DNA of 64,000 nt, taken from the NCBI GenBank assembly GCA_016783945.1, contig JADHVP010000002.1, forward strand, positions 852 to 64,851. The letters run 5' to 3'. Below are positions 28,323-55,502 of this stretch, in pieces (within the stretch, counting starts at the first letter, position 1; each line of letters begins with the position of its first letter). The translations under genes and the position numbers were made by a program. This DNA comes from Ignavibacteria bacterium (GTDB lineage Bacteria > Bacteroidota > Ignavibacteria > Tepidaquicellales > Tepidaquicellaceae). The notes below the pieces were generated by a model that was given only the letters and a program-made list of their open reading frames with translations, did no database searches and was not told the DNA's origin.

Positions 28323-29768
28323 TTAAATTTTTCTCCTTAATCTTGCTTTCGGTATTTTCAGTGACTCTCGGTATTTCGCAATTGTTCTTCTTGCTATTTT
28401 ATATCCTATTTTTTTCATCTCTACTGCAAGCTGGTCGTCTGTAAATGGTTTCGAAGTATCTTCATTATCTATTATCTCTTTCAATTTTATTTTAATCTCT
28501 TTTGTCGAAATGTCATCACCTTCATCATTCTTCATATAATTACTGAAAAAATATTTTAGTTCATAGATTCCAAAATCTGTTTGTACATATTTTCCCCTGA
28601 CAGTACGGCTTACAGTAGAAATATCCATGTTAATATCTTCGGCAACATCCTTTTCATACATTGGCTTCAGTCCTTCACCCAAATTATCAAAGAACTCAAT
28701 CTGTCTTCGAAGAATCGAGTTCATAACTTTCAACATTGTTTCCCTTCTCGATTTTATAGCTTCTAAAAACCATTTAGCTCTTTCAAAATTATTTGTTATA
28801 AAATCTTTTGTATCTTTTTCTAATTTTTTCTTATCACGTGATAATAGCTTTTTATACGTTTTGTTTAATCTTAAACTTGGAATATTTCTGTCATTTAATT
28901 CAATTTTATATTCACCATTCTCTTTAGTTATAATAAGATCGGGATAGATGTAATTTTGTTCAATTGAATTTTCTATTGCTCCTGGTTTGGGATTAAGTTT
29001 TAAAATGAAATCAAAAATTTCGTTAATAGTTTCAGCATCTACATTCAACTCTTTAATGAGTTTTTCGTAATTCTTTAACCTGAATTCTTCAAAGTAATCA
29101 TTCAATACTCTTTTACATAGCTTTTTGAAACCTTCATCTATCTTTGAATTATTGATCTGAAGAATTAAACATTCGCGAAGATTCCTTGAGGCAATCCCTA
29201 TAGGATCATATTTTTGAATACGCTCTATGACTTCATTTATTTCCTCTAATTTAAAATCCTCATTCTCAAATTCCGTTCCAATCTTTAGTTTATCGATATC
29301 CCTTTTTATATCTTCGATTTCGTCTCTTAGATATCCTTCATCATCAAGACTACCGATTACCTCCTCACCTATAAAAATTTGTTTATCGTTTAAGCCGGAC
29401 AGATGCAGTTGTGATAAAAGATTATCGTACAAAGTAGCTTTACTTCTCCATAAGTTTTCCTGAATTACCCTTCTATCATTAACACTGTTGTCTTGTGTTT
29501 TATATCCTGCTATATCATCATCACCATAATCTTCCCAATCGAATTCTTCATCTTCATCTGACTTGCTTTCCTCTTCTTTAATTTCCTCTTTTTCTTCTGA
29601 CTCCTCCTCTAGTAAATCATAAATCTCATCTAAAAAAGGATTTTGTTCTATCTCTTGCCTCATCATTTGTTCAATTGCTAATGTAGGGATAGCTAATAGA
29701 CTTTGTCTCTGAATTATTTGAGGAAGAATCTTTTGTACTAACCGTTGAGTTTGAGTCTGTCTTAACAT
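28323..29768 (-). CDS. rpoN: RNA polymerase sigma-54 factor
   Basis: N-terminal Q/L-rich region I (MLRQTQTQRLVQKILPQ), an acidic region II, and the C-terminal RpoN box ARRTIAKYRESLKIP. Confidence 0.9.
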   Translation of the reverse strand: MLRQTQTQRLVQKILPQIIQRQSLLAIPTLAIEQMMRQEIEQNPFLDEIYDLLEEESEEKEEIKEEESKSDEDEEFDWEDYGDDDIAGYKTQDNSVNDRRVIQENLWRSKATLYDNLLSQLHLSGLNDKQIFIGEEVIGSLDDEGYLRDEIEDIKRDIDKLKIGTEFENEDFKLEEINEVIERIQKYDPIGIASRNLRECLILQINNSKIDEGFKKLCKRVLNDYFEEFRLKNYEKLIKELNVDAETINEIFDFILKLNPKPGAIENSIEQNYIYPDLIITKENGEYKIELNDRNIPSLRLNKTYKKLLSRDKKKLEKDTKDFITNNFERAKWFLEAIKSRRETMLKVMNSILRRQIEFFDNLGEGLKPMYEKDVAEDINMDISTVSRTVRGKYVQTDFGIYELKYFFSNYMKNDEGDDISTKEIKIKLKEIIDNEDTSKPFTDDQLAVEMKKIGYKIARRTIAKYRESLKIPKARLRRKI

Positions 29769-29775
29769 AGTTCCA

Positions 29776-30333
29776 CTAAATGTTTATTCGTTTTTCTAAA
29801 TTATAATAAAAGTGTTTACCACACTCGCGAATGATTCCATCTTTAACAAATTTCATTACTGGAACACCTTCCAGTAAACCTTTATCCAACGCATCGTTGC
29901 ATTCGTTTATTATTTCATATTTCAGGATATTCCTTTTCTTTCCATTGATTCTGATTGGAAACAAATGACATGAAATTGGTTTTATAAAATCTATCTTGTT
30001 TTCAAAGTAAGCTTTCTGGATAGCACACTTAGCAATTCCAGTATCATAGTAAGAAAAAACGCAGTCGTCATTGTTTATCCCTTTTAATGAGTATTCATTT
30101 CCGTCTCTTTCATAAAACCCATTTTCATCAATCCAATTACAATTGATACCTGCTAAATTCTCTTTCACTGTGACTAATATTGATTCGAATTTTTTTATTT
30201 CCTCTTTTAACAAAGGAGCCCCGATTGTTCCTTTTATCGTACAGCACGCACCTTTACACAATTGTAAATCACACGAGAATTTTACCGAGAAGATCCTATC
30301 GTCAATCATGTATTTATCTAAACCATCATTCAT
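29776..30333 (-). CDS. DUF3109 family Cys-rich protein
   Basis: FSCDLQLCKGACCTIKGTIGAPLLKEEI matches the DUF3109 N-terminal Cys cluster. Confidence 0.6.
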   Translation of the reverse strand: MNDGLDKYMIDDRIFSVKFSCDLQLCKGACCTIKGTIGAPLLKEEIKKFESILVTVKENLAGINCNWIDENGFYERDGNEYSLKGINNDDCVFSYYDTGIAKCAIQKAYFENKIDFIKPISCHLFPIRINGKKRNILKYEIINECNDALDKGLLEGVPVMKFVKDGIIRECGKHFYYNLEKRINI

Positions 30334-31457
30334 AACCTTATAAAATTCTTACCGGGTATCTGTTTTATAATTTCTTTGAACTCAAGCGATAACAAATTTA
30401 CAAGGCAGTCAGATATAGACATCTCCGTTATTTCACTTATCTTATCAATGTGAATAGGTTCTATGCCTATAACTTCATAAATCTTTTTTTCAAAAATACT
30501 CAATTCCTGTATTTGTTTTTCTTCTTTCTCTGCCTCAGTCTTCTTCAATATAGGTTTAAGCTTGTAGCTTAATTCATTCAAAATGTCATCAACATTAGTC
30601 ACCAACTTTGCCTGACCATTCTTAATTAACTCATTACTGCCTTCAGATTTCTTTGAATAAATATATCCGGGTATTGCGAACACCTCTTTATTCTGGTCGA
30701 GAGCAAATTCCCCTGTTATTAAAGAACCGCCTTTTAAACCAGTTTCAACAATTAACGTCCCGACACTTATACCGCTTATTATTCTGTTCCTTCTCGGAAA
30801 ATTAACCTTATCAGGAGCAGCACCAATTTCAAACTCCGATATTACAGCACCGTTTTCTATAATCTGTTCGTAGAGCTTTTTATTTTCTTTGGGATAAACA
30901 ACATCTGCACCGCAGCCCAAAACAGCATAAGTTAAATTATTATTTTCAAGAGCAACTCTGTGTGACATAGAATCAATACCTCTCGCTAACCCGCTTACAA
31001 CGGGTATTCCCAATTTCGAAATCTCCTTAACCATTCTCTCGCATACGTTCCTGCCATATTCAGTGGGGAATCTCGTACCAACAACACTTAATGAATATTT
31101 ATCTTCTTTATAAAGCCTTCCTTTTATATATAACAATACCGGGGCATCAAATATCTTCTTCAGATTTGAGGGATACTCTTCATCGGTGATGTTTACGATT
31201 TGTATGTTCTTTTCTTCAGCATTCTTAATAATCTTATCGAACTCTATTTCATAATCTCCAAATAACTTCTTAGACTTCATTATCTCATTCGAAGTCTTCT
31301 CATCAATTCCCTCAATCCTTTTTAACTCATGTTTACTTAGCTCAAAACATTCCTTCGCTCCTTTGCAATGAGTAAGGATATTCTTTATCCTGACATTACC
31401 AATGTTTTTCACCTTCGTTAGATAAAATAAGTATTTTAAATTTTCTTTACTTTGCAA
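30330..31457 (-). CDS. dprA: DNA-processing protein DprA (Smf)
   Basis: Rossmann-like core VVGTRFPTEYGRNV...VSGLARGIDSMSHRVAL...AVLGCGADVVYP...FPRRNRIISGIS...VVETGLKGGSLITGEFALDQNKEVFAIPG. It uses a TTG start (rc of caa at 31455-31457) and overlaps the downstream gene by 4 nt. Confidence 0.9.
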   Translation of the reverse strand: MQSKENLKYLFYLTKVKNIGNVRIKNILTHCKGAKECFELSKHELKRIEGIDEKTSNEIMKSKKLFGDYEIEFDKIIKNAEEKNIQIVNITDEEYPSNLKKIFDAPVLLYIKGRLYKEDKYSLSVVGTRFPTEYGRNVCERMVKEISKLGIPVVSGLARGIDSMSHRVALENNNLTYAVLGCGADVVYPKENKKLYEQIIENGAVISEFEIGAAPDKVNFPRRNRIISGISVGTLIVETGLKGGSLITGEFALDQNKEVFAIPGYIYSKKSEGSNELIKNGQAKLVTNVDDILNELSYKLKPILKKTEAEKEEKQIQELSIFEKKIYEVIGIEPIHIDKISEITEMSISDCLVNLLSLEFKEIIKQIPGKNFIRL

Positions 31458-31574
31458 AAATTAATCCTTTATCCAATGATACGTAAACTTTATGCAAATT
31501 ATAATTTAATAATTGAAGTTTACAATATAATTATAAATCTACAAATTAACAAAGTGATAGAGAAGGGGGAGAGG
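31408..31574. repeat. direct repeat copy 1 (about 166 bp): dprA codons 1-16 plus the dprA upstream region
   Basis: Nearly identical to 33265-33430. The central ~135 bp differ at one position (ccaatgat vs cctatgat). The ends are more diverged. Confidence 0.9.
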
Positions 31575-31726
31575 TTAAAAAGAAATTTAATATGAGCGAT
31601 ACTATATTTTTACCAGATGTTGATGTTCTTTCACATACAATAAAAAAAAATATAGTGATGCTTCAAGTATCCCAACAGAATAACACCAAATGCATTTATA
31701 TGTTTATCTTGTTCACTGATTTCTTA

Positions 31727-32209
31727 CTAATTTTTGGATTTCAATTTCTTATCCCTAATTCTAAGAAAATCCCTAGGGTTTAATACTGGAATGTAGACAT
31801 GTTCTAGAAAAGTTCCTGCTGTTCTACTAGCAAACATAGCACGAGTGTGTGAAATTGATAATCCGATAATAGTAGCTTCGAATATTTCAGGTAATATTAA
31901 TCTTTTTTCTTGCTTATTATAATATTCTTTCAAATCTTGTACCTCAAATATATTTGCAGTAAGAATATTTCCCAACCTAATTTTTTTGTTTTCATCAAGA
32001 AAAACATTGACGTTAGTCTCTATAATTATTAAACCTTCATTTAGAATTGTATTATTTGTACATTGAACATCAAAGATATGGTTTTGAAAGGTCTTTTTGT
32101 CTGAAACTTCTTTATCTATTAATTCTTTTTTTAATTCTATTTTAAGAGAAAGTAAACTTATATCCTTAATTCTATATTTTATATGTTTTCTGTTGTTCTC
32201 CGTTTTCAT
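31727..32209 (-). CDS. SecB-like chaperone candidate (third gene of the cassette)
   Basis: 160 aa. By-eye similarity to E. coli SecB at both ends: YRIKDISL vs IQRIYTKDISF, and SHTRAMFASRTAGTFLEHVYIPVLNPRDF vs [29 protein letters not shown]. Its ATG directly abuts the stop of the upstream HTH gene. Confidence 0.45.
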   Translation of the reverse strand: MKTENNRKHIKYRIKDISLLSLKIELKKELIDKEVSDKKTFQNHIFDVQCTNNTILNEGLIIIETNVNVFLDENKKIRLGNILTANIFEVQDLKEYYNKQEKRLILPEIFEATIIGLSISHTRAMFASRTAGTFLEHVYIPVLNPRDFLRIRDKKLKSKN

Positions 32210-32665
32210 TTATGCTACTTCACTATGATATGTTTTATTAAGGGCTTTATTTAGATCGAGCAAATCATATTCTGACTTCAACGGAATTTTGTTAAAATAC
32301 TCTAAACGAACATTTTTATTTGCAATTTTTCTTTCAAAATAATCTTTATTAAATCGATAGGATGAACTTGATTCGTAATTTATATAGACATTTTCATAAG
32401 CATATTTTGGAACAAGTATTATATCTTCATTTAATGCAGATTCAATTTTTGCAATAGTATCTAATGTAAAGTTATGACTGCCATTTAACCATTTACTTAT
32501 TTCTGATTCATTTTTTCCAAGCTTTATAGCGAGTTCTTTTTGAGTCATCTTCTTCTCTTTAAGATATTGTGCAATCTGATCTGCAATATCCATAGAAATC
32601 CTAATGAATCTCCTCTTTTCGTCAGAGATATTCTTTAGTAATTCCTCAAATATTTTGCTACCCAT
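32210..32665 (-). CDS. XRE-family HTH protein with a ~65-aa C-terminal extension (antitoxin candidate, HigA-like)
   Basis: HTH KKMTQKELAIKLGKNESEISKWLNGSHNFTLDTIAKIESAL, followed by the tail VPKYAYENVYINYESSSSYRFNKDYFERKIANKNVRLEYFNKIPLKSEYDLLDLNKALNKTYHSEVA. Confidence 0.7.
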   Translation of the reverse strand: MGSKIFEELLKNISDEKRRFIRISMDIADQIAQYLKEKKMTQKELAIKLGKNESEISKWLNGSHNFTLDTIAKIESALNEDIILVPKYAYENVYINYESSSSYRFNKDYFERKIANKNVRLEYFNKIPLKSEYDLLDLNKALNKTYHSEVA

Positions 32666-32675
32666 ATTATTAATT

Positions 32676-33143
32676 TTAAAATTTAAAAATTAAATCCCCT
32701 ATAATTTCATTATCTGTTATTATAATTTCACCATCTTTTATTCTTTCATCAATTAAAGGAAATATTTCCTCAAGTTGATTTACAATTGTATTTAATTCAG
32801 GAATTTCCTGATATGTTGGTTTATCTTTAATACCACCATCGCCTAAAACAACAGCTACATTTCCATATCTTAAACAATATAATCTTAGATTACCTTCCCA
32901 TAATGAACAGATATTATTCAAAATACTGCTTTCTTCGATTTTAAAATAATGATCCTGGCATCCACTTTTATTTGCCATTCTCTCTATCTTTGATTCTATG
33001 TTTTCAATTCTATCTTTTTCAGATGATGAAAATTTCTGAAAAAATTTATCCGCTTCTGACTTTGGTTCTGAACAAAACCTAATAGTGTAAAAAGTTGATT
33101 TTTCTCCTTTATAAAATTCCTCTATTATAAACGAATTCTTCAC
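32676..33143 (-). CDS. RelE/ParE-superfamily (HigB/Gp49-like) toxin candidate with N- and C-terminal extensions
   Basis: 155 aa. The core ...SLWEGNLRLYCLRYGNVAVVLGDGGIKDKPTYQEIPE... resembles the (E)LR..hRhhY.....hhhLhhhhKK....P motif of Gp49/HigB toxins. It lies 10 nt upstream of the HTH gene. Confidence 0.4.
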   Translation of the reverse strand: MKNSFIIEEFYKGEKSTFYTIRFCSEPKSEADKFFQKFSSSEKDRIENIESKIERMANKSGCQDHYFKIEESSILNNICSLWEGNLRLYCLRYGNVAVVLGDGGIKDKPTYQEIPELNTIVNQLEEIFPLIDERIKDGEIIITDNEIIGDLIFKF

Positions 33144-33242
33144 TTATAAGTTAAGTATCTATTGTTTAAAAATGAATGCTAAAATATTACCCTTAACATG
33201 AATTTTATCTTTATTATAAATCTGTATACTTAGTGAAACAAT

Positions 33243-33314
33243 TTACCTTACAATACAAAGATTATTCACCTTTGTCAGGTAAAATAAGTATTTTAAATTT
33301 TCTTTACTTTGCAA
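33243..33314 (-). pseudogene. dprA' 5' remnant (16 dprA codons, then out-of-context sequence and a stop)
   Basis: Inside repeat copy 2: TTG CAA AGT AAA GAA AAT TTA AAA TAC TTA TTT TAC CTG ACA AAG GTG reads (M)QSKENLKYLFYLTKV, identical to the DprA N-terminus. It then continues NNLCIVR*. Confidence 0.8.
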
Positions 33315-33430
33315 AAATTAATCCTTTATCCTATGATACGTAAACTTTATGCAAATTATAATTTAATAATTGAAGTTTACAATATAATTATAAATCTACA
33401 AATTAACAAAGTGATATTAAGAGGGAGAGG
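33265..33430. repeat. direct repeat copy 2 (about 166 bp)
   Basis: See copy 1. It starts ttcacctttgtcaggtaaaataag and ends ...aacaaagtgatattaagagggagagg. Confidence 0.9.
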
Positions 33431-33436
33431 AAAAAT

Positions 33437-34498
33437 CTAAGTACACGACAAAAATTTAATTAGAAAATTAAACTCTTTTGATTTCAAATTAAGATCAAAG
33501 ATAACGCTTCTTAAATAATCCAAACCTTTTCTAAATATGCTTATTTCTTTTCTGCCATTTATTTTCAATTTTATTTTTATAGAATCATCTATCCAAATAC
33601 CCACAAGGTAAGACCATAAGAATGCTATTGTTAGTAGTGCAATTAACTTCTTAATTTTTATTGGATCTGTCATATGTGTCTTCTCAAAATCAAATCCTTT
33701 CGTCTTTAAATATCCAAATAGATTCTCAATTGTCCAACGCTGCTTATAATCTCCCAGAGCATCCCCCGGATTATTATTACTGGCTAATATAAAATACTCT
33801 CCTTTATTTGTGCGTCTTCCTGATATGTATAGTTCATTGTTATAGACCATCTTCTTATATGGTAAAACAATATAGCTATACGCTTTAGTATATTTGAATA
33901 AACTTCTTACAGTCTTTATCGGTGATTTATATTTTGTTATAACTGCATCCTTCCTTATTCTTATATGAAACTCCAGCTTACTCTCGATTAAATACTTGAA
34001 CCACTTCGCACTTGCAAATTCTCTGTCTGCTACTAATGATTTTATCCTCTGGAGACCTAATAAATTTATAGCTTTCTCTACCAACTCTTTTCTCTCTTCT
34101 ATCGATGAGTTTCCTCTCTTATTCAATAACTTCCAATACAATGGTATCGAGGTATCGCGGTATACTATTCCTAACATTAATATATTTATATCTTTTTTTC
34201 CAAACTGCCAGTTTGTTCTATCTAGTGTTAATATATACTTCTTGTCCTTTGGTAATTGTGTGATTACAAATCTCGATATTACATCATAGTCCATTACGAA
34301 TTCTGAAAAAAATCTCTGTATCCTTCTGTAGTTTGAACAATTCTTTACTCTATGATTTATATCTAATGATATATCTGTTAACTTTATTGTCTTTACCCTT
34401 ATTAGGCTTACTATAAATGAACTTATTAATTTTATCCTGGCTTTGTTACATCTAAAATGTTGTTGTAATATGTTTTGTAATTTTGTAATACGATTCAT
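33437..34498 (-). CDS. IS4-family DDE transposase
   Basis: 353 aa. DDE candidates are LDRTNW, VADREF and the YREK signature Y-x2-R-x3-E-x6-K (YKQRWTIENLFGYLK). The ORF runs to the last nucleotides of the element. Confidence 0.85.
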   Translation of the reverse strand: MNRITKLQNILQQHFRCNKARIKLISSFIVSLIRVKTIKLTDISLDINHRVKNCSNYRRIQRFFSEFVMDYDVISRFVITQLPKDKKYILTLDRTNWQFGKKDINILMLGIVYRDTSIPLYWKLLNKRGNSSIEERKELVEKAINLLGLQRIKSLVADREFASAKWFKYLIESKLEFHIRIRKDAVITKYKSPIKTVRSLFKYTKAYSYIVLPYKKMVYNNELYISGRRTNKGEYFILASNNNPGDALGDYKQRWTIENLFGYLKTKGFDFEKTHMTDPIKIKKLIALLTIAFLWSYLVGIWIDDSIKIKLKINGRKEISIFRKGLDYLRSVIFDLNLKSKEFNFLIKFLSCT

Positions 34499-34600
34499 AA
34501 TCTGATTTTTATATTATATTATTAAATTTTGTGGTTTGATAAATATAATAAATTTGAGTCAGATTATCTTTTTTTATTTCTCTTTTTTGTCGTGTACTAA
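33437..34600 (-). mobile_element. IS4-family insertion sequence (about 1164 bp) with terminal inverted repeats and a 10-bp target-site duplication
   Basis: Left end (c)taagtacacgacaaaaa (33437-33454) matches the right end tttttgtcgtgtactaa (34584-34600) as a 17-bp IR with one mismatch. The flanking direct repeat gaggaaaaat occurs at 33427-33436 and 34601-34610. Confidence 0.85.
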
Positions 34601-34762
34601 GAGGAAAAATACAAAACTTGGAATACCTGTATTAATTCAATCTAACTTTTTTAAAATGTTTCTCTGCATTCGGACAGGAATAAATATTTGCTTATTTTCT
34701 ATAATAAAAATACTATATGTTATTTCAAAGTTCATTAATAACTTTTAACAAAGGGGCAACAA

Positions 34763-35914
34763 ATGGAAAAGAAAACCTATCTGAATCTCATCTTCCTTTT
34801 AGTAATATTATTTCCTTTAAATCTTTTTTCACAGCAAGACGGTCCGCGTGGTGAATATCCAGACGCTATAATCAATCCTTACTGGGAATTTTATTCTGAA
34901 AACAGACTATCAACAATTTCAGGAGGCAAAGGATATACAGGAGTTGCATCATTAGGAGATATGTCAAGCATTTCACTAAATCCCGCTTCTCTTTATATTG
35001 AAAAAAGATTTAATACAAATGTGAGTTACAATTTTCGAACAAGAGTAAACTATCTGCCTTATTTCTCAAGTGATGATTATTTGAAAAATGCACTCCCATC
35101 TTTATCAGTCGGGGGAGGATATCGAATTAATGAGAATTTTCAAACGGGATTTTCTTATCAAAATAATTACAGTTATAAATATGATTTTATTTTAATTACA
35201 ACGAATGAATTTGGAACTGAAATAGGAAGAAACGAAGCATACTACAAGTTTATTTCGCATTCATTTATAGTACCATTTGTATTTAATTACGAGTGGTTAA
35301 GGCTTGGTGCAAATCTAAATCTAACATATATAACAGGTGATTTTGATTACGGTGAAGATATTTTCATTAATGAATTTCCTACCTCGGGTAAAGCAGAGCT
35401 ATGGAGTTTCATTCCTCAAATAGGATTTATAATTTCTCCGAATAAATATTTTTCTTTGGGCGCCTCTTATACATTCGGGTTTTCTGACAACTTTGAGTGG
35501 GAATATAATAGGGGAACTCCTCAAACATCGTATTGTGAAATACCTTCAAGACTATCAGTAGGAACCGAAGGTAAGCTCCTGGAAGATAAATTAAGGTTAT
35601 CGCTTGAATATCATTATGCAAACACGTCAGCCATTAACTACCTGAAAGATAAAAGTAACATACATCTTGGAGCAGAATATTCTATTAATGATTTCTGGAT
35701 AGTACGGGGAGGTTTCTTTACACTTTTTGATTTTCGTGATGTCGATGACACCTGGAACTACAATACAACATTCGACCAGTTTTTCATTACAGTTGGAGGA
35801 ACATATAAATACAAAGGACTTGCATTTAATGTAGCACTCCTGAGTAGTTATTTAACCAGTAGCTCGGGTGTAAAGCATTCGATTATAAATGCGGGGATTG
35901 GTTTTGATTTTTGA
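34763..35914 (+). CDS. outer-membrane beta-barrel protein (FadL/PorV-like; family uncertain)
   Basis: Signal peptide ...LFPLNLFSQQ, GDMSSISLNPASL (an NPA(G/S)L motif as in FadL/PorV-type barrels), and a C-terminal ...NAGIGFDF. Confidence 0.45.
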   Translation: MEKKTYLNLIFLLVILFPLNLFSQQDGPRGEYPDAIINPYWEFYSENRLSTISGGKGYTGVASLGDMSSISLNPASLYIEKRFNTNVSYNFRTRVNYLPYFSSDDYLKNALPSLSVGGGYRINENFQTGFSYQNNYSYKYDFILITTNEFGTEIGRNEAYYKFISHSFIVPFVFNYEWLRLGANLNLTYITGDFDYGEDIFINEFPTSGKAELWSFIPQIGFIISPNKYFSLGASYTFGFSDNFEWEYNRGTPQTSYCEIPSRLSVGTEGKLLEDKLRLSLEYHYANTSAINYLKDKSNIHLGAEYSINDFWIVRGGFFTLFDFRDVDDTWNYNTTFDQFFITVGGTYKYKGLAFNVALLSSYLTSSSGVKHSIINAGIGFDF

Positions 35915-52252: not shown

Positions 52253-55200
52253 TTACACCGTCTTCTCGACACTTTCAAAATACTTATCTATTTCAACTTG
52301 CAGTTTAATTGTCTTAGAAAGTGCGGTGACAATCTTACAGTAGGTTTGGATTTCTTCTAAAGTAAGCGTTCTTTCTTTTCTATCTTTTAACCATTTATCA
52401 CATACTTGATAACCACCGATTTGATATTTCCAAACTTCTTCTTTTACTTTACTAAAATACTGCTCTTTGTTTATCCAGACTTTATCATCTTCATATTTTA
52501 GTTTTTCTACTTTATTTGTCCCGCTTTGAGGAAATTTAGAGATAGTTTTATCTAAGTCTTTCGATTTCAGTAAATGCAGTTCTGCAAGATTTTTACCAAG
52601 TTTACCGAGTTGAATAAAAAGTTTATAGTCTTTTGTAAACGGAATTCGAGGGAAATCTATCTTCAAGAATTCTGCATATTTTGTGCGGTAAGTATTACTG
52701 TAAAGAACAGCATAGATGTAATAAAATATTTCTTCGGGTGTAACTTCTTTTTTGAAATTGTTTTTGAGTTCTTCAAATAATTCGGGATTTATATTAGGTT
52801 GACGAGTTTGATACTTGACAGCTGGTTCAAATACCATCATTTGTTTGGTAAAAGATTTTTTCTTTTCTTTTTTTTCTTGATATAAGTATAAAGGAAAAAC
52901 CAATTCGCCTCCACGACGAAACAAATTTAAATCAACGATATTTTCTGAAATATAAACGATATCATAAATATCTGAACCAGTGGCACTTCCTTGGCGTCCA
53001 ACACATAAAGCAACATTATCCTCTAACATATGACGCATATTTTCTTTACGTGTACGTTCTATCATTTCATCGTGGTAAAAAATCCATTTAACATCAAAAG
53101 GACGATAAAGGATTTGAGTAAATGCATTTTGCCAATCTTTGTCTTTACTTAGTTTTTTCCTTTGTTCCCTTGTCTTCCAGCTTTTATTATCTTTTAATTT
53201 ATAGGTTTGTTTTAGAATTTCTGTATCAACTTTATAATCTATAAATTGACCTATTCTTCGATGAAGTTTCTTTTTATCACTGTCTATTACAAAGCTATCT
53301 CTCGCAGTTACAACTCCAACGCTGTTAGAAGGGAAGATTTCTGTAATCTTTAAAAATGTTTGATAATCCTTTAGCAAACTTATATCTTGTGGAATAAAAA
53401 GATAAAACTCACTTTTGGGTTCAAGCTTTTCCCATTTTACATTTTTAATATTATGTTCATTAAGCCAATCGTATTTTTCTTCCCATAAACCAAAAATTTC
53501 TTGATGAAATACTTGTTTCTTCTTTACATTTTTATATTTAATAAAAAATGCTATCGCAACCCCTTGCTGAATGTCAAAAACATTTTCGTCTTTGCTTCCA
53601 TCGGGGCATTTTTCTTTCTTTAAGCTGTTACCGTGTAAGTCAAGGATATATATTTCATCAAAACTATTCATTAGAGATTGACGCATCCCTCTAAACGTAG
53701 GATTATCGAGATAACTGTGATTTGTAATAAATCCGAGAACACCTTCACCTGCTTGGTCAATCTTCCATTGTGCGAATCGAATAAATTTAACATAGTCATC
53801 CTGAAGCCACTTAGGATTTTTTTCTCCAAGAGGTTTACCATCAACCTTGTAATATTCTTTTATCTCTTTTGAAATCCATTCACCTATATTTGAAGAGTGA
53901 CCTGAGTAGGGAGGATTTCCAAGAATCACAAGAATAGGAATATCCTTTTTAACTTTTCCGGCTTCGTGGCTTTCTTGAGAAAGTGATGACATTCCCGGAA
54001 ATTTAGATTCATCAAGCTCTTTCATTTCGAGCGTGTTTGTCAAATAATATTTTACACGCTCATCGTCTGCCATCTTGTAACCGAATTCTTCAAGCAGGAA
54101 AGACATTTTCATATGCCCGATTGCATAAGGTGCCATCATAAGTTCGAAAGCATAATAATTTTTAAGAATCTGTTCTTTTATAAAAGTATTTACTGCACCT
54201 TTACCATATTTGGTTTTAAATTCTTCGACTGCTGTTTCAATTGCTTTAGCTAAAAAACCAAGAGTCCCACCTGCAGGATCAAGCAGAGTAACATTCTTAG
54301 AAGCAAAACCATCCGAAATATTAAATTTATCTTTAAGAATCTGGTGAAGCGAACGTACAATAAAAGACACAGCCGGTTCCGGTGTGTAATAAACTCCCCG
54401 TTTTTCTCTTGTTGCAGGATCATAAACAGAAAGAAAGGTTTCATAAAAATGTAAAACCGGGTCGCTTCCTTTTCCTTCGTGATAATATTGATCGAGAATT
54501 TTCTTTGCGTCCGAAACCGCAAGTACTTCGGCAATGTCATCAATAATTATTTCCATTTGTATGGGCAAATCTTCTATAGAGATGAATTTGAAAATATCTC
54601 TCAATATTCCAATAGATTTTGGTATAAAAGAATATGCAAGCTTTCTGGTAAATTCTTTACCAGCACGGAGACGTGCTGCAAACAAACCATACGTAATAGT
54701 CTGTGAATAAATGTCCGCAAATTCATCTTCATTTATTCCTGCAATTAAAAACTCTTTAAACGCCTCGTAAAATCCGTGAATTGATTTTGTACCACTTTTT
54801 AATTCTTCACTAACAATTTCATCTTTCAAAAACTTTGTTCTTTTTGCAAGTTCAACAGCAAGAGTTTTTGCAGTATAAGTTTTAGGAAGTGAAAAATCTA
54901 AAAAGCGTTCGAGCAGTTCAAATAATTTGTCTTCGTTTTCAAGAGGCGGAACTGATGAAAGTTTTTTAATAACGAAAGGGCGTGCAATTGATATTTGTTC
55001 AATTCGTTCACCGTTTCTATATAAACGGAACTCGGTAAAGTTCGTTAATATTACATTTGGGAAAGTTGATAAGTATCTCTCAAGCTGTTCTGTTTCTTCA
55101 ATCCTGTCGAGGTTAACACCTAAATCTTTAGTTTCAATATAACCTGTTATTTTCTGTTTTCCGTCCCAAACTCTGAAGTCAGGATTCCCGGCTTCTGTTT

Positions 55201-55351
55201 TCTTTGGAAGAATTGTAATGTCTACTTTCTTTTTTCTCTGTGATTCAGAAAAATCTGTAATAAAATCCGCAAGATGTTTGTAATAAGATTCCTCTCTCGC
55301 ATCACCTTTTTGATATGTCTTAAATAAATTTGATAAATATTTTTTAGTCAT
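52253..55351 (-). CDS. Type IIG (MmeI-like / Type IIL) restriction-modification enzyme: fused PD-ExK nuclease, gamma-class N6-adenine methyltransferase and specificity domain
   Basis: 1032 aa. N-terminal nuclease-like motif NPDFRVWDGKQKITGYIETKD (D...ExK). AdoMet motif I TLLDPAGGTLGF. Catalytic motif IV GNPPYSG. The long C-terminal region resembles the Type ISP/IIG target-recognition part. Confidence 0.75.
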   Translation of the reverse strand: MTKKYLSNLFKTYQKGDAREESYYKHLADFITDFSESQRKKKVDITILPKKTEAGNPDFRVWDGKQKITGYIETKDLGVNLDRIEETEQLERYLSTFPNVILTNFTEFRLYRNGERIEQISIARPFVIKKLSSVPPLENEDKLFELLERFLDFSLPKTYTAKTLAVELAKRTKFLKDEIVSEELKSGTKSIHGFYEAFKEFLIAGINEDEFADIYSQTITYGLFAARLRAGKEFTRKLAYSFIPKSIGILRDIFKFISIEDLPIQMEIIIDDIAEVLAVSDAKKILDQYYHEGKGSDPVLHFYETFLSVYDPATREKRGVYYTPEPAVSFIVRSLHQILKDKFNISDGFASKNVTLLDPAGGTLGFLAKAIETAVEEFKTKYGKGAVNTFIKEQILKNYYAFELMMAPYAIGHMKMSFLLEEFGYKMADDERVKYYLTNTLEMKELDESKFPGMSSLSQESHEAGKVKKDIPILVILGNPPYSGHSSNIGEWISKEIKEYYKVDGKPLGEKNPKWLQDDYVKFIRFAQWKIDQAGEGVLGFITNHSYLDNPTFRGMRQSLMNSFDEIYILDLHGNSLKKEKCPDGSKDENVFDIQQGVAIAFFIKYKNVKKKQVFHQEIFGLWEEKYDWLNEHNIKNVKWEKLEPKSEFYLFIPQDISLLKDYQTFLKITEIFPSNSVGVVTARDSFVIDSDKKKLHRRIGQFIDYKVDTEILKQTYKLKDNKSWKTREQRKKLSKDKDWQNAFTQILYRPFDVKWIFYHDEMIERTRKENMRHMLEDNVALCVGRQGSATGSDIYDIVYISENIVDLNLFRRGGELVFPLYLYQEKKEKKKSFTKQMMVFEPAVKYQTRQPNINPELFEELKNNFKKEVTPEEIFYYIYAVLYSNTYRTKYAEFLKIDFPRIPFTKDYKLFIQLGKLGKNLAELHLLKSKDLDKTISKFPQSGTNKVEKLKYEDDKVWINKEQYFSKVKEEVWKYQIGGYQVCDKWLKDRKERTLTLEEIQTYCKIVTALSKTIKLQVEIDKYFESVEKTV

Positions 55352-55502
55352 ATACTATTTATCTTGTTGTCAGTAGTTCTTCCTGACAGCTTAAAAATAA
55401 CCATTCCCAAAACAAAAAAGACTCCAAAAGTCAATTACAACTCTTAGAGTCTTTTCTTTGTAACTTTGCGTCTTTATTCTTTGCGGCTTAGCGTGAAACT
55501 CT

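Follow-up and report, generated by a model that had tools for sequence, protein, structure and literature searches.

Campbell-type integration is known from its textbook cases, suicide vectors and the integration of plasmids or episomes, and islands such as SXT/R391 at prfC supply their target gene with a replacement 5' end and promoter. Cis-mobilisable elements (CIMEs) are remnants flanked by attachment (att) sites that have no integrase and are mobilised by the integrase of a related element and, in another setting, the tufA/tufB genes and the ribosomal RNA (rrn) operons evolve in concert by gene conversion. Here we consider a locus that can be set beside each of these, found in a stretch of 64,000 nucleotides from an Ignavibacteria bacterium (GenBank assembly GCA_016783945.1, contig JADHVP010000002.1, positions 852 to 64,851; hereafter the window). 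In this stretch, a three-gene cassette that is a candidate phage-defence operon lies between dprA and an outer-membrane protein (OMP) gene, and is bracketed by two direct repeats, R1 and R2, each carrying the 5' end of dprA and the sequence upstream of it. The best explanation of this arrangement, to which we give a probability of about 0.55, is the insertion of a circle by a single crossover, with later gene conversion and exchange of the locus by homologous recombination. All coordinates below are positions in the window, and identities to relatives are given relative to it.

Using a repeat search and local alignment, we located R1 (copy 1) at 31384-31588, where it adjoins the intact dprA, and R2 (copy 2) at 33242-33436, upstream of the cassette. 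The start-to-start spacing of the two is 1857 bp and they are the sole strong direct repeat found within 29-36 kb. A preliminary description of this DNA had reported near-identical direct repeats at 31408-31574 and 33265-33430, each with the first 16 codons of dprA. Pairwise alignment bears out the near-identity (local alignment score 306; blastn E ~1e-72). The repeats are therefore real, but the homology extends slightly further than these intervals, and both the alignment of R1 with R2 and the translation of the dprA stub in R2 give 24 codons of dprA per copy instead of 16, together with ~130 bp of upstream sequence. In this AT-rich window (GC content of 34%), a 51-nt probe from the core of the repeat matches two sites only, in R1 and R2, where none is expected from shuffles.

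Each copy can be divided into a core and two arms. The core (31423-31559 in R1 and 33280-33416 in R2) is 137 bp long, spans the first 12 codons of dprA and 102 non-coding bp ahead of them, and has a single mismatch, an A at 31475 in R1 against a T at 33332 in R2. Over the whole alignment, 30 of the 207 columns differ and all but one of these are within the left 39 bp and the right ~30 bp, a confinement to the repeat ends that has P<1e-5 against random placement. In R1, the left arm A1 (31384-31422) covers dprA codons 12-24 and the right arm B1 occupies 31560-31588; in R2, the left arm A2 (33242-33279) is part of a decayed dprA stub, and the right arm B2 (33417-33436) is interrupted by an IS4-family element and resumes at 34612 for a few bases. 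R1 runs on into the intact dprA (30330-31457, minus strand), which has a TTG start and encodes a protein of 375 aa (Pfam DNA_processg_A, 5.4e-74, and DprA_WH). Homologues with as little as 80% identity retain the N-terminus of this protein, MQSKENLKYLFYLTKVKN, and the first codons with their TTG start can therefore be taken as real. R2 encodes MQSKENLKYLFYLTKVNNLCIVR and then a stop: this stub (33243-33314, minus strand, 23 codons followed by TAA) is a displaced or duplicated dprA 5' end. About 1.65 kb separates R1 from R2, such that the insert plus one repeat amounts to 1857 bp. As had been described, only three genes are present between the repeats, exactly three open reading frames (ORFs) that are all on the dprA strand and are spaced by 10 nt or abutting; the IS4-family element that abuts copy 2 had gone unmentioned.

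The arrangement is genuine and is not an assembly artefact. Contigs of four ENA assemblies (ERZ24794672, ERZ24794671, ERZ24794666 and ERZ24794679) read through from R2 across the cassette and R1 into dprA, and the arm-specific sequences are identical in these four contigs and in the source contig of the window. Within the species, it is present in these four ENA assemblies, which belong to one study, and in GCA_014874595.1. In ERZ24794671, the contig with the cassette has a coverage of 23.5x and the neighbouring contig 24.9x, equal depths that fit a single-copy, integrated unit. Several assemblies do break at or near the repeats and the IS4-family element, as a collapsed or mis-joined repeat would have it, but the independent read-through contigs (four from ENA and the source contig), with arms unique to each copy, effectively refute such an artefact and leave it a negligible probability.

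The empty site that the preliminary description had predicted was found in a sister species (CAYYJH010000055.1, here L020; ~88.6% nucleotide identity), the genome CAYYJH01 being also the closest by DprA (93% identity), a protein that assigns the window to an uncultured member of the Ignavibacteriaceae. The L020 contig carries the OMP gene, a spacer of ~150 bp, a single repeat (R) that joins this spacer to dprA, and neither the cassette nor the IS4-family element, with nothing missing relative to the window. Homology to the intergenic sequence that L020 has in its OMP-type arrangement is found in B1 as well as in B2, and A2 consists of a 5' fragment of dprA, which indicates that the duplicated segment is one contiguous native piece. 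Compared with L020, this segment is directly duplicated on both sides of the insert and the target sequence is intact, which is the arrangement that characterises a Campbell-type insertion. A single R is found in the relatives L018, L022, L028, L114 and L120 as in L020.

A cassette homologue of 87.6% nucleotide identity is present in the Logan contig L100 (SRR10568897). Upstream of this cassette lies a dprA 5' fragment that ends after AGGATAAA, as in the window, so that the truncation point of the stub, at codon 24/25, is the same in both; downstream, the same junction between cassette and B1 is followed by the R core. The contig ends within R-like sequence on both sides, as expected for two copies of R. 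Between the window and L100, cassette genes 1 and 2 have synonymous divergences (dS) of 0.22-0.25 and dN/dS ratios of 0.2-0.4. Since both junctions are common to the window and L100 at a dS of ~0.23, they point to one event that predates this split. The insertion is old, or the unit has long kept these junctions, and it is not a recent arrival. The stub of L100 has hardly decayed, in keeping with a conversion that was more recent and reached the edge of the repeat.

In its non-coding part, the core of R1 matches that of R2 at 99% identity, but identity to the orthologous stretch is only 80% in L018, 65% in L020, 57% in L120 and 65% in L114. This sequence is therefore not strongly constrained, and yet R1 and R2 are near-identical. 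The simplest reading of this pattern is concerted evolution, in which gene conversion would homogenise the core while the edges, seldom reached by conversion tracts, would erode. The A2 alleles TAC CTG are also found in L018, L100 and L106, and the window-specific changes (TAT CTA, AAA and ATT) are in the functional copy, A1; the decay of A2 includes a 1-bp deletion and a stop codon. In a test for hybrid arms, A2 has alleles of other lineages and B1 differs from B2, but the origins of the arms are confounded by decay, by gene conversion and by the recombination patches of A1. The divergence of the repeat ends had been ascribed to an incoming copy from a related but non-identical genome; such a donor alone does not account for the pattern, and edge erosion of an old duplication, central gene conversion and short-patch recombination in the functional dprA copy fit it better. 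The Campbell-type insertion originally put forward is supported in part, by the layout, the lack of a recombinase inside the repeats, the empty site and the A2 alleles of other lineages; no mobility signal was found, contigs that read through a whole repeat having the integrated junctions only.

Judging from mosaic alleles, the locus evidently often undergoes homologous recombination with diverged DNA. L018 (ERZ24794656 NODE_186805) is 100% identical to the window over 29249-31044 (1.8 kb) and is abruptly ~15% diverged from dprA codon ~137 (31045) up to 31560, through R, after which an unrelated island with a gene of 387 aa follows. This break is either a homologous-recombination breakpoint inside dprA or, given a coverage of 4.4x, an assembly chimera. 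In L106 (JACKQG010226205.1), dprA is identical to that of the window except for two patches of ~8% divergence, at 30715-30914 and 31315-31440, as is typical where short patches have been exchanged with diverged DNA. That the locus as a whole is subject to homologous exchange is suggested by the sharp breakpoints of these mosaics within dprA, in strains that are otherwise near-identical.

The region upstream of dprA varies in the same set of relatives. The gene oppC is directly beside dprA in L022 and L028, a divergent hypothetical gene of 387-390 aa, with or without further genes, is upstream of dprA in L018, L120 and L114, and the OMP-type arrangement is found in L020 and the window. By gene content, the oppC-dprA interval is thus a variable island among relatives. 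L018 was considered as another occupant of the site taken by the cassette and this was rejected, its 387-aa gene representing a different and probably older type of island, also seen in L120 and L114, each with a single R. In the more distant L114 (ERZ24794679 NODE_50608, 987-8195; dprA 77% aa identity), 7.4 kb separate dprA from oppC; besides the hypothetical gene of 390 aa and several genes without annotation, this interval encodes a beta-helix protein that has a Por_Secre_tail domain (type IX secretion system, T9SS).

The core of each repeat also contains a sigma-70-like match, TTGTAA-16-TATAAT, on the minus strand. In R1 (31498-31525), this consensus match is 41 nt upstream of the dprA start, and the identical match in R2 (33355-33382) is positioned ahead of the stub and the cassette operon. 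Neither Rfam families nor intrinsic terminators were found at significance within the repeats or beside them, and folding of the RNA of the spacer between cassette and R1 revealed no significant structure (z-score 0.30). The presence of the promoter-like match in both cores and the lack of a terminator or RNA structure before R1 suggest that the cassette is probably driven by the duplicated promoter and that its transcription may read through into dprA. Within the core, dprA codons 1-12 and ~13 nt upstream (31423-31470 and 33280-33327) are nucleotide-invariant, synonymous sites included, in relatives down to 75% nucleotide identity. A palindrome in this stretch, TTTGCAAA, overlaps the TTG start codon, and the stretch may be a regulatory or translation-initiation element.

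We propose that a circle made of the cassette and one R recombined once within the R of a genome with the order OMP-R-dprA, or that a topologically equivalent event took place. This would have been a single old event, before the cassettes of the window and L100 split (dS ~0.23). R2 keeps the native upstream flank and the dead stub, and R1 sits before the intact dprA. Afterwards, the allele would have been inherited, its core homogenised by gene conversion and its edges eroded, and the unit would have spread, or been replaced, together with the locus by RecA-type homologous recombination through the flanking core genes. Functionally, R2 would lend the dprA promoter to the cassette, which would probably be expressed with dprA, and R1 would keep dprA itself expressed. 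Recombination between R1 and R2 would be expected to delete the cassette, recreate the empty site and release a circle of 1857 bp. It might be speculated that the TA (toxin-antitoxin) pair of the cassette penalises its loss by such loop-out.

Several points weigh against this insertion scenario. The original recombination event cannot be observed, and exactly the same product would be obtained from a site-specific crossover at dprA codon 24/25 or from a two-step event, illegitimate and then homologous. The donor circle has never been seen unambiguously and gene conversion is deduced from the pattern of differences only; the identity of the cores could owe something to re-integration in recent times, or to selection that acts on a promoter present twice. 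The flanks of L100 lie beyond its contig, and vertical inheritance and horizontal movement are both compatible with it; the L018 contig, at 4.4x, could be a chimera. Finally, sigma-70-like consensus matches, on which the promoter assignment rests, are no more numerous in the region than in shuffles.

Three other readings, and an extension of one of them, have to be weighed against the single-crossover insertion. The locus could be the remnant of an integrase-mediated island, inserted at dprA codon 24/25 by a recombinase that was lost or acted in trans, that is, a non-autonomous CIME-like unit with attL and attR. The element would in that case have brought a surrogate dprA promoter and 5' end (R1) and displaced the native 5' end (R2) to the far side, with the same final layout. 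The sharp junction between stub and cassette, identical in two lineages after AGGATAAA, agrees with this, as does the repeat centre (codons 1-12 and 13 nt upstream), invariant down to 75% identity, integrases often using conserved targets; islands specific for dusA replace the 5' end of their target gene likewise (PMC4482086). We nonetheless regard such an origin as unlikely. Neither in the cassette nor in the remainder of the 64 kb did Pfam annotation and direct Pfam scans turn up an integrase, domain searches bore out the earlier statement that no recombinase lies inside the repeats, and none of the three cassette proteins has a recombinase domain. Known 5'-end att repeats are ~20 bp and semi-conserved (PMC4482086), compared with ~200 bp and a 137-bp core here. 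No dif-like Xer site was detected in the repeats: a dif-derived pattern gave chance-level matches only, all of them outside R1 and R2 (a weak test, made with a pattern based on the E. coli consensus). Among 80 species fetched, none of the 75 checkable dprA loci has a second copy of the dprA 5' end within up to 8 kb upstream, and there is therefore no sign of a family of elements that targets dprA. A scan of JGI metagenomes with the R core returned same-species contigs only, plus five unrelated chance matches, and viral or phage relatives were found neither in IMG/VR, scanned with the R core and the cassette proteins, nor among the INPHARED phages, searched by tblastn. The same layout could also stem from a local, non-mobile rearrangement, either an illegitimate insertion at a staggered break with ~200 bp of fill-in and no circle, or a two-step origin in which the cassette disrupted dprA at codon 24/25 and the promoter and 5' end were re-imported by homology-facilitated illegitimate recombination. 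The rearrangement-prone oppC-dprA interval, variable among relatives, and the abundant recombination patches in dprA are in its favour, but it requires a staggered break of exceptional length, or else one event after another, and is less economical. DprA loads RecA on incoming DNA, and a dprA-null intermediate would be non-transformable, which makes repair by transformation unlikely; moreover, a cassette with a single R is seen in no contig. We consider a local rearrangement distinctly unlikely.

The possibility that the cassette is mobile today without any recombinase, looping out as 1857 bp between R1 and R2 and re-entering by means of its dprA-homology tag, depends largely on the Logan contig L007 (SRR19040528). 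This contig is 1887 bp long, that is 1857 + 30, its first 30 nt are identical to its last 30 nt, and it combines the A2 arm with the copy-1 state (A) at the core single-nucleotide polymorphism (SNP), as expected of a circle whose crossover fell to the left of this SNP; it has no branch toward dprA. In addition, the cassette is 100% identical in strains with differing flanks. However, L007 ends on one shared 30-mer where B1 and B2 diverge and never reads through from A2 across the core into B1, and bounds on the same 30-mer fit a k=31 graph of the integrated form. Other Logan contigs likewise stop exactly 30 nt (k-1) into the shared segments (L008 at 33309, L019 at 31452 and L011 at 33387). L007 was accordingly not accepted as proving that an excised circle exists: the integrated form yields the same contig in a k=31 graph once the SNP bubble is popped, which accounts for the SNP state, and the dprA branch clipped. 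No contig reads through a junction of the excised circle or the restored junction that the preliminary description had suggested looking for; contigs that span a whole repeat show A1 to B1 and A2 to B2 only, and the ambiguous L007 is explicable as a de Bruijn loop. Coverage reveals no excess of cassette over flanks, and gene 3 is decaying in L100, as in a vertically inherited passenger. Present-day mobility is on these grounds highly improbable. Very unlikely, too, is an extended form of this idea, a recombinase-free defence/TA cassette that uses the dprA promoter and 24 codons as an address tag, loops out through RecA and re-integrates in competent relatives. If this were true, expression from the duplicated promoter would be linked to competence, the HigB-like TA pair would guard against loss, and repeated integration and excision, beyond gene conversion alone, would account for a repeat centre that agrees with the host and for ends that do not. 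Single-crossover insertion with later gene conversion remains for us the best account of the locus.

The three cassette genes are on the minus strand. Gene 1 (32676-33143; 155 aa) encodes a protein with a predicted RelE/HigB-like toxin fold, gene 2 (32210-32665; 151 aa) an XRE-type helix-turn-helix (HTH) protein (Pfam HTH_3, 7.6e-12), and gene 3 (31727-32209; 160 aa), which abuts gene 2, an uncharacterised protein. All three match hidden Markov models (HMMs) of the PADLOC system PDC-M64 (PDLC04756, 9.8e-37; PDLC04760, 2.3e-33; and, for gene 3, the PDC-M64C model PDLC04763, 4.5e-14), and they are adjacent and on the same strand, as membership of the system calls for. PDC systems are phage defence candidates found by guilt-by-embedding and are listed as untested (bioRxiv 10.1101/2024.01.29.577857). 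We consider the cassette to be a toxin-antitoxin-like, candidate phage-defence operon.

Sequence searches of Pfam and NCBIfam gave no match for the gene 1 protein and place it in no curated toxin family, Pfam gave none for gene 3, and profile searches of the PDB by sequence found nothing. The gene 1 family comprises 964 representative clusters at E<=1e-3. An AlphaFold2 model of gene 1 built from an alignment of 119 sequences (pLDDT, the predicted local distance difference test, 96.2; pTM, the predicted template modelling (TM) score, 0.90) replaced one from only four sequences, which had been unusable with a pLDDT of 55.7. With this model, almost all of the top 18 Foldseek matches in the PDB are chains of TA modules or RelE-family toxins (6af3/6af4, RelE, YoeB, YafQ and RelK), with moderate scores (probability up to 1.00, best E 2.3e-3, TM 0.5-0.62 on the target). 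The top matches, 6af3/6af4, are presumably HigBA. Weak matches to Pfam Gp49 (HigB-like) were seen in 3 of 119 family members, all below threshold (E >= 0.0035). By its model, the gene 1 product has a RelE/HigB-like toxin fold, and that of gene 2 is presumed to be the antitoxin and regulator; the fold matches and the Gp49 near-matches give genes 1 and 2 the look of a pair of the HigBA type, the toxin gene preceding the other.

The three-gene order recurs in L100-L105, with L101-L105 representing unrelated contexts. The same module, with 163-aa, HTH and 159-aa proteins, is also carried by a Bacteroides thetaiotaomicron plasmid (L121, NZ_CP103284.1 59688-61030), downstream of a DUF4041 gene. In L100 (1093-1577), gene 3 is split into ORFs of 56 aa and 71 aa, and genes 1 and 2 are intact and under purifying selection; gene 3 may be dispensable. 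An ORF on the opposite strand at 31592-31783 (+) was rejected as a gene, its L100 counterpart stopping after 19 codons.

The IS4-family element (33437-34602, minus strand; 1166 bp) encodes a DDE transposase of 353 aa (NCBIfam NF033591, 218 bits against a cut-off of 152; Pfam DDE_Tnp_1) and has imperfect inverted repeats of 18 bp. It lies within the B2 arm between two copies of a 9-bp target duplication, AGGAAAAAT (33428-33436 and 34603-34611), and thus combines the transposase, terminal inverted repeats and short target-site duplication by which the family is recognised. Its insertion is a separate, later event in the right arm of R2, outside the repeat-flanked unit. The window has one copy and the identical site is occupied in L109 (JACKQG010061388.1). 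Contigs of several assemblies end at the borders of the element, which suggests that it is multi-copy in the genome.

Beyond it, the OMP gene (34763-35914, plus strand; Pfam, weak FadL-like match) forms the far flank of the site. The encoded protein is 72% identical to that of L109 and 75% to that of L020, yet R2, the IS4-family element and the region upstream of the OMP gene are all 100% identical in L109 and the window. The OMP gene is hypervariable, in what looks like an allelic replacement within a surface-protein gene, and its product could be a phage receptor. A second defence gene, ~19 kb from the cassette, encodes a Type ISP restriction-modification protein of 1032 aa (52253-55351, minus strand; N6_Mtase and Type_ISP_C), and the ENA contig NODE_1589 ends near it. 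Beside this gene, a sequence of ~54 nt (55380-55430) recurs at 81% identity in L114 (2186-2239), L115 (1314-1367) and L116 (1424-1477), just downstream of 390-aa hypothetical genes, and it may be a small repeated intergenic element.

The locus offers a clean natural example, for which a sister species supplies the empty site, of a small TA/defence operon placed beside an essential competence gene without harm to dprA: with the dprA promoter and 5' end duplicated, the cargo and dprA each keep a promoter. It also provides a promoter repeat of ~200 bp that evolves in concert, and it identifies the region upstream of dprA as a recombination hotspot in this uncultured Ignavibacteriaceae population, with alleles swapped by homologous recombination. 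If the duplicated promoter does couple the cassette to dprA, cells would turn on defence or addiction functions as they take up DNA; otherwise, the locus is an ordinary structural polymorphism and involves no new mechanism of mobility.

Considering the known systems in turn, the cassette shares with PDC-M64 the matches to three HMMs and a gene order that is kept in other taxa and on a plasmid (bioRxiv 10.1101/2024.01.29.577857). Like HigBA modules, it has a gene with a predicted RelE/HigB-like fold that precedes an XRE-HTH gene; it differs from them in a larger gene 1 product (155 aa, with extra N-terminal strands and helices), in the third conserved gene of 160 aa and in the absence of a Pfam match at threshold. 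The repeats behave like the tufA/tufB and rrn copies in that copies within a genome are closer at the centre than orthologues are and that divergence is concentrated at the edges, but they are ~200 bp long, are mostly non-coding promoter sequence and bracket foreign cargo.

As in CIMEs, a small cargo without its own recombinase lies between att-like repeats, but no cognate integrase or parent element was identified and the repeats are far longer than att cores. In dusA-specific islands, as here, the insert is flanked by repeats of the target 5' end, the target gene is intact and the displaced 5' fragment is at the far end (PMC4482086). Such 5'-end islands also have an empty site in relatives, and the flanking repeats and reconstituted target that are expected of them have their counterparts in R1, R2 and the intact dprA. 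By contrast, dusA islands have semi-conserved att sites of ~21 bp (PMC4482086) whereas our repeats are ~200 bp with a 137-bp core and no defined short core. Islands of this type carry a terminal tyrosine or serine integrase and use their target recurrently; here there is no such gene in the cassette or the 64 kb, no recurrence at dprA (0/75 loci) and a cargo of only 1.65 kb. With Campbell integration, the locus shares duplicated flanks, an undeleted target, an insert plus repeat that equals the presumed circle, and an expected reversal by recombination between repeats; it departs from the textbook cases in being natural, old and fixed, without vector or replicon functions, with eroded repeat ends and with a circle that has never been observed. 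Although the integrase and short att core of 5'-end islands are lacking, the effect on the target gene resembles that of these islands, and the feature itself works like a Campbell-type insertion.

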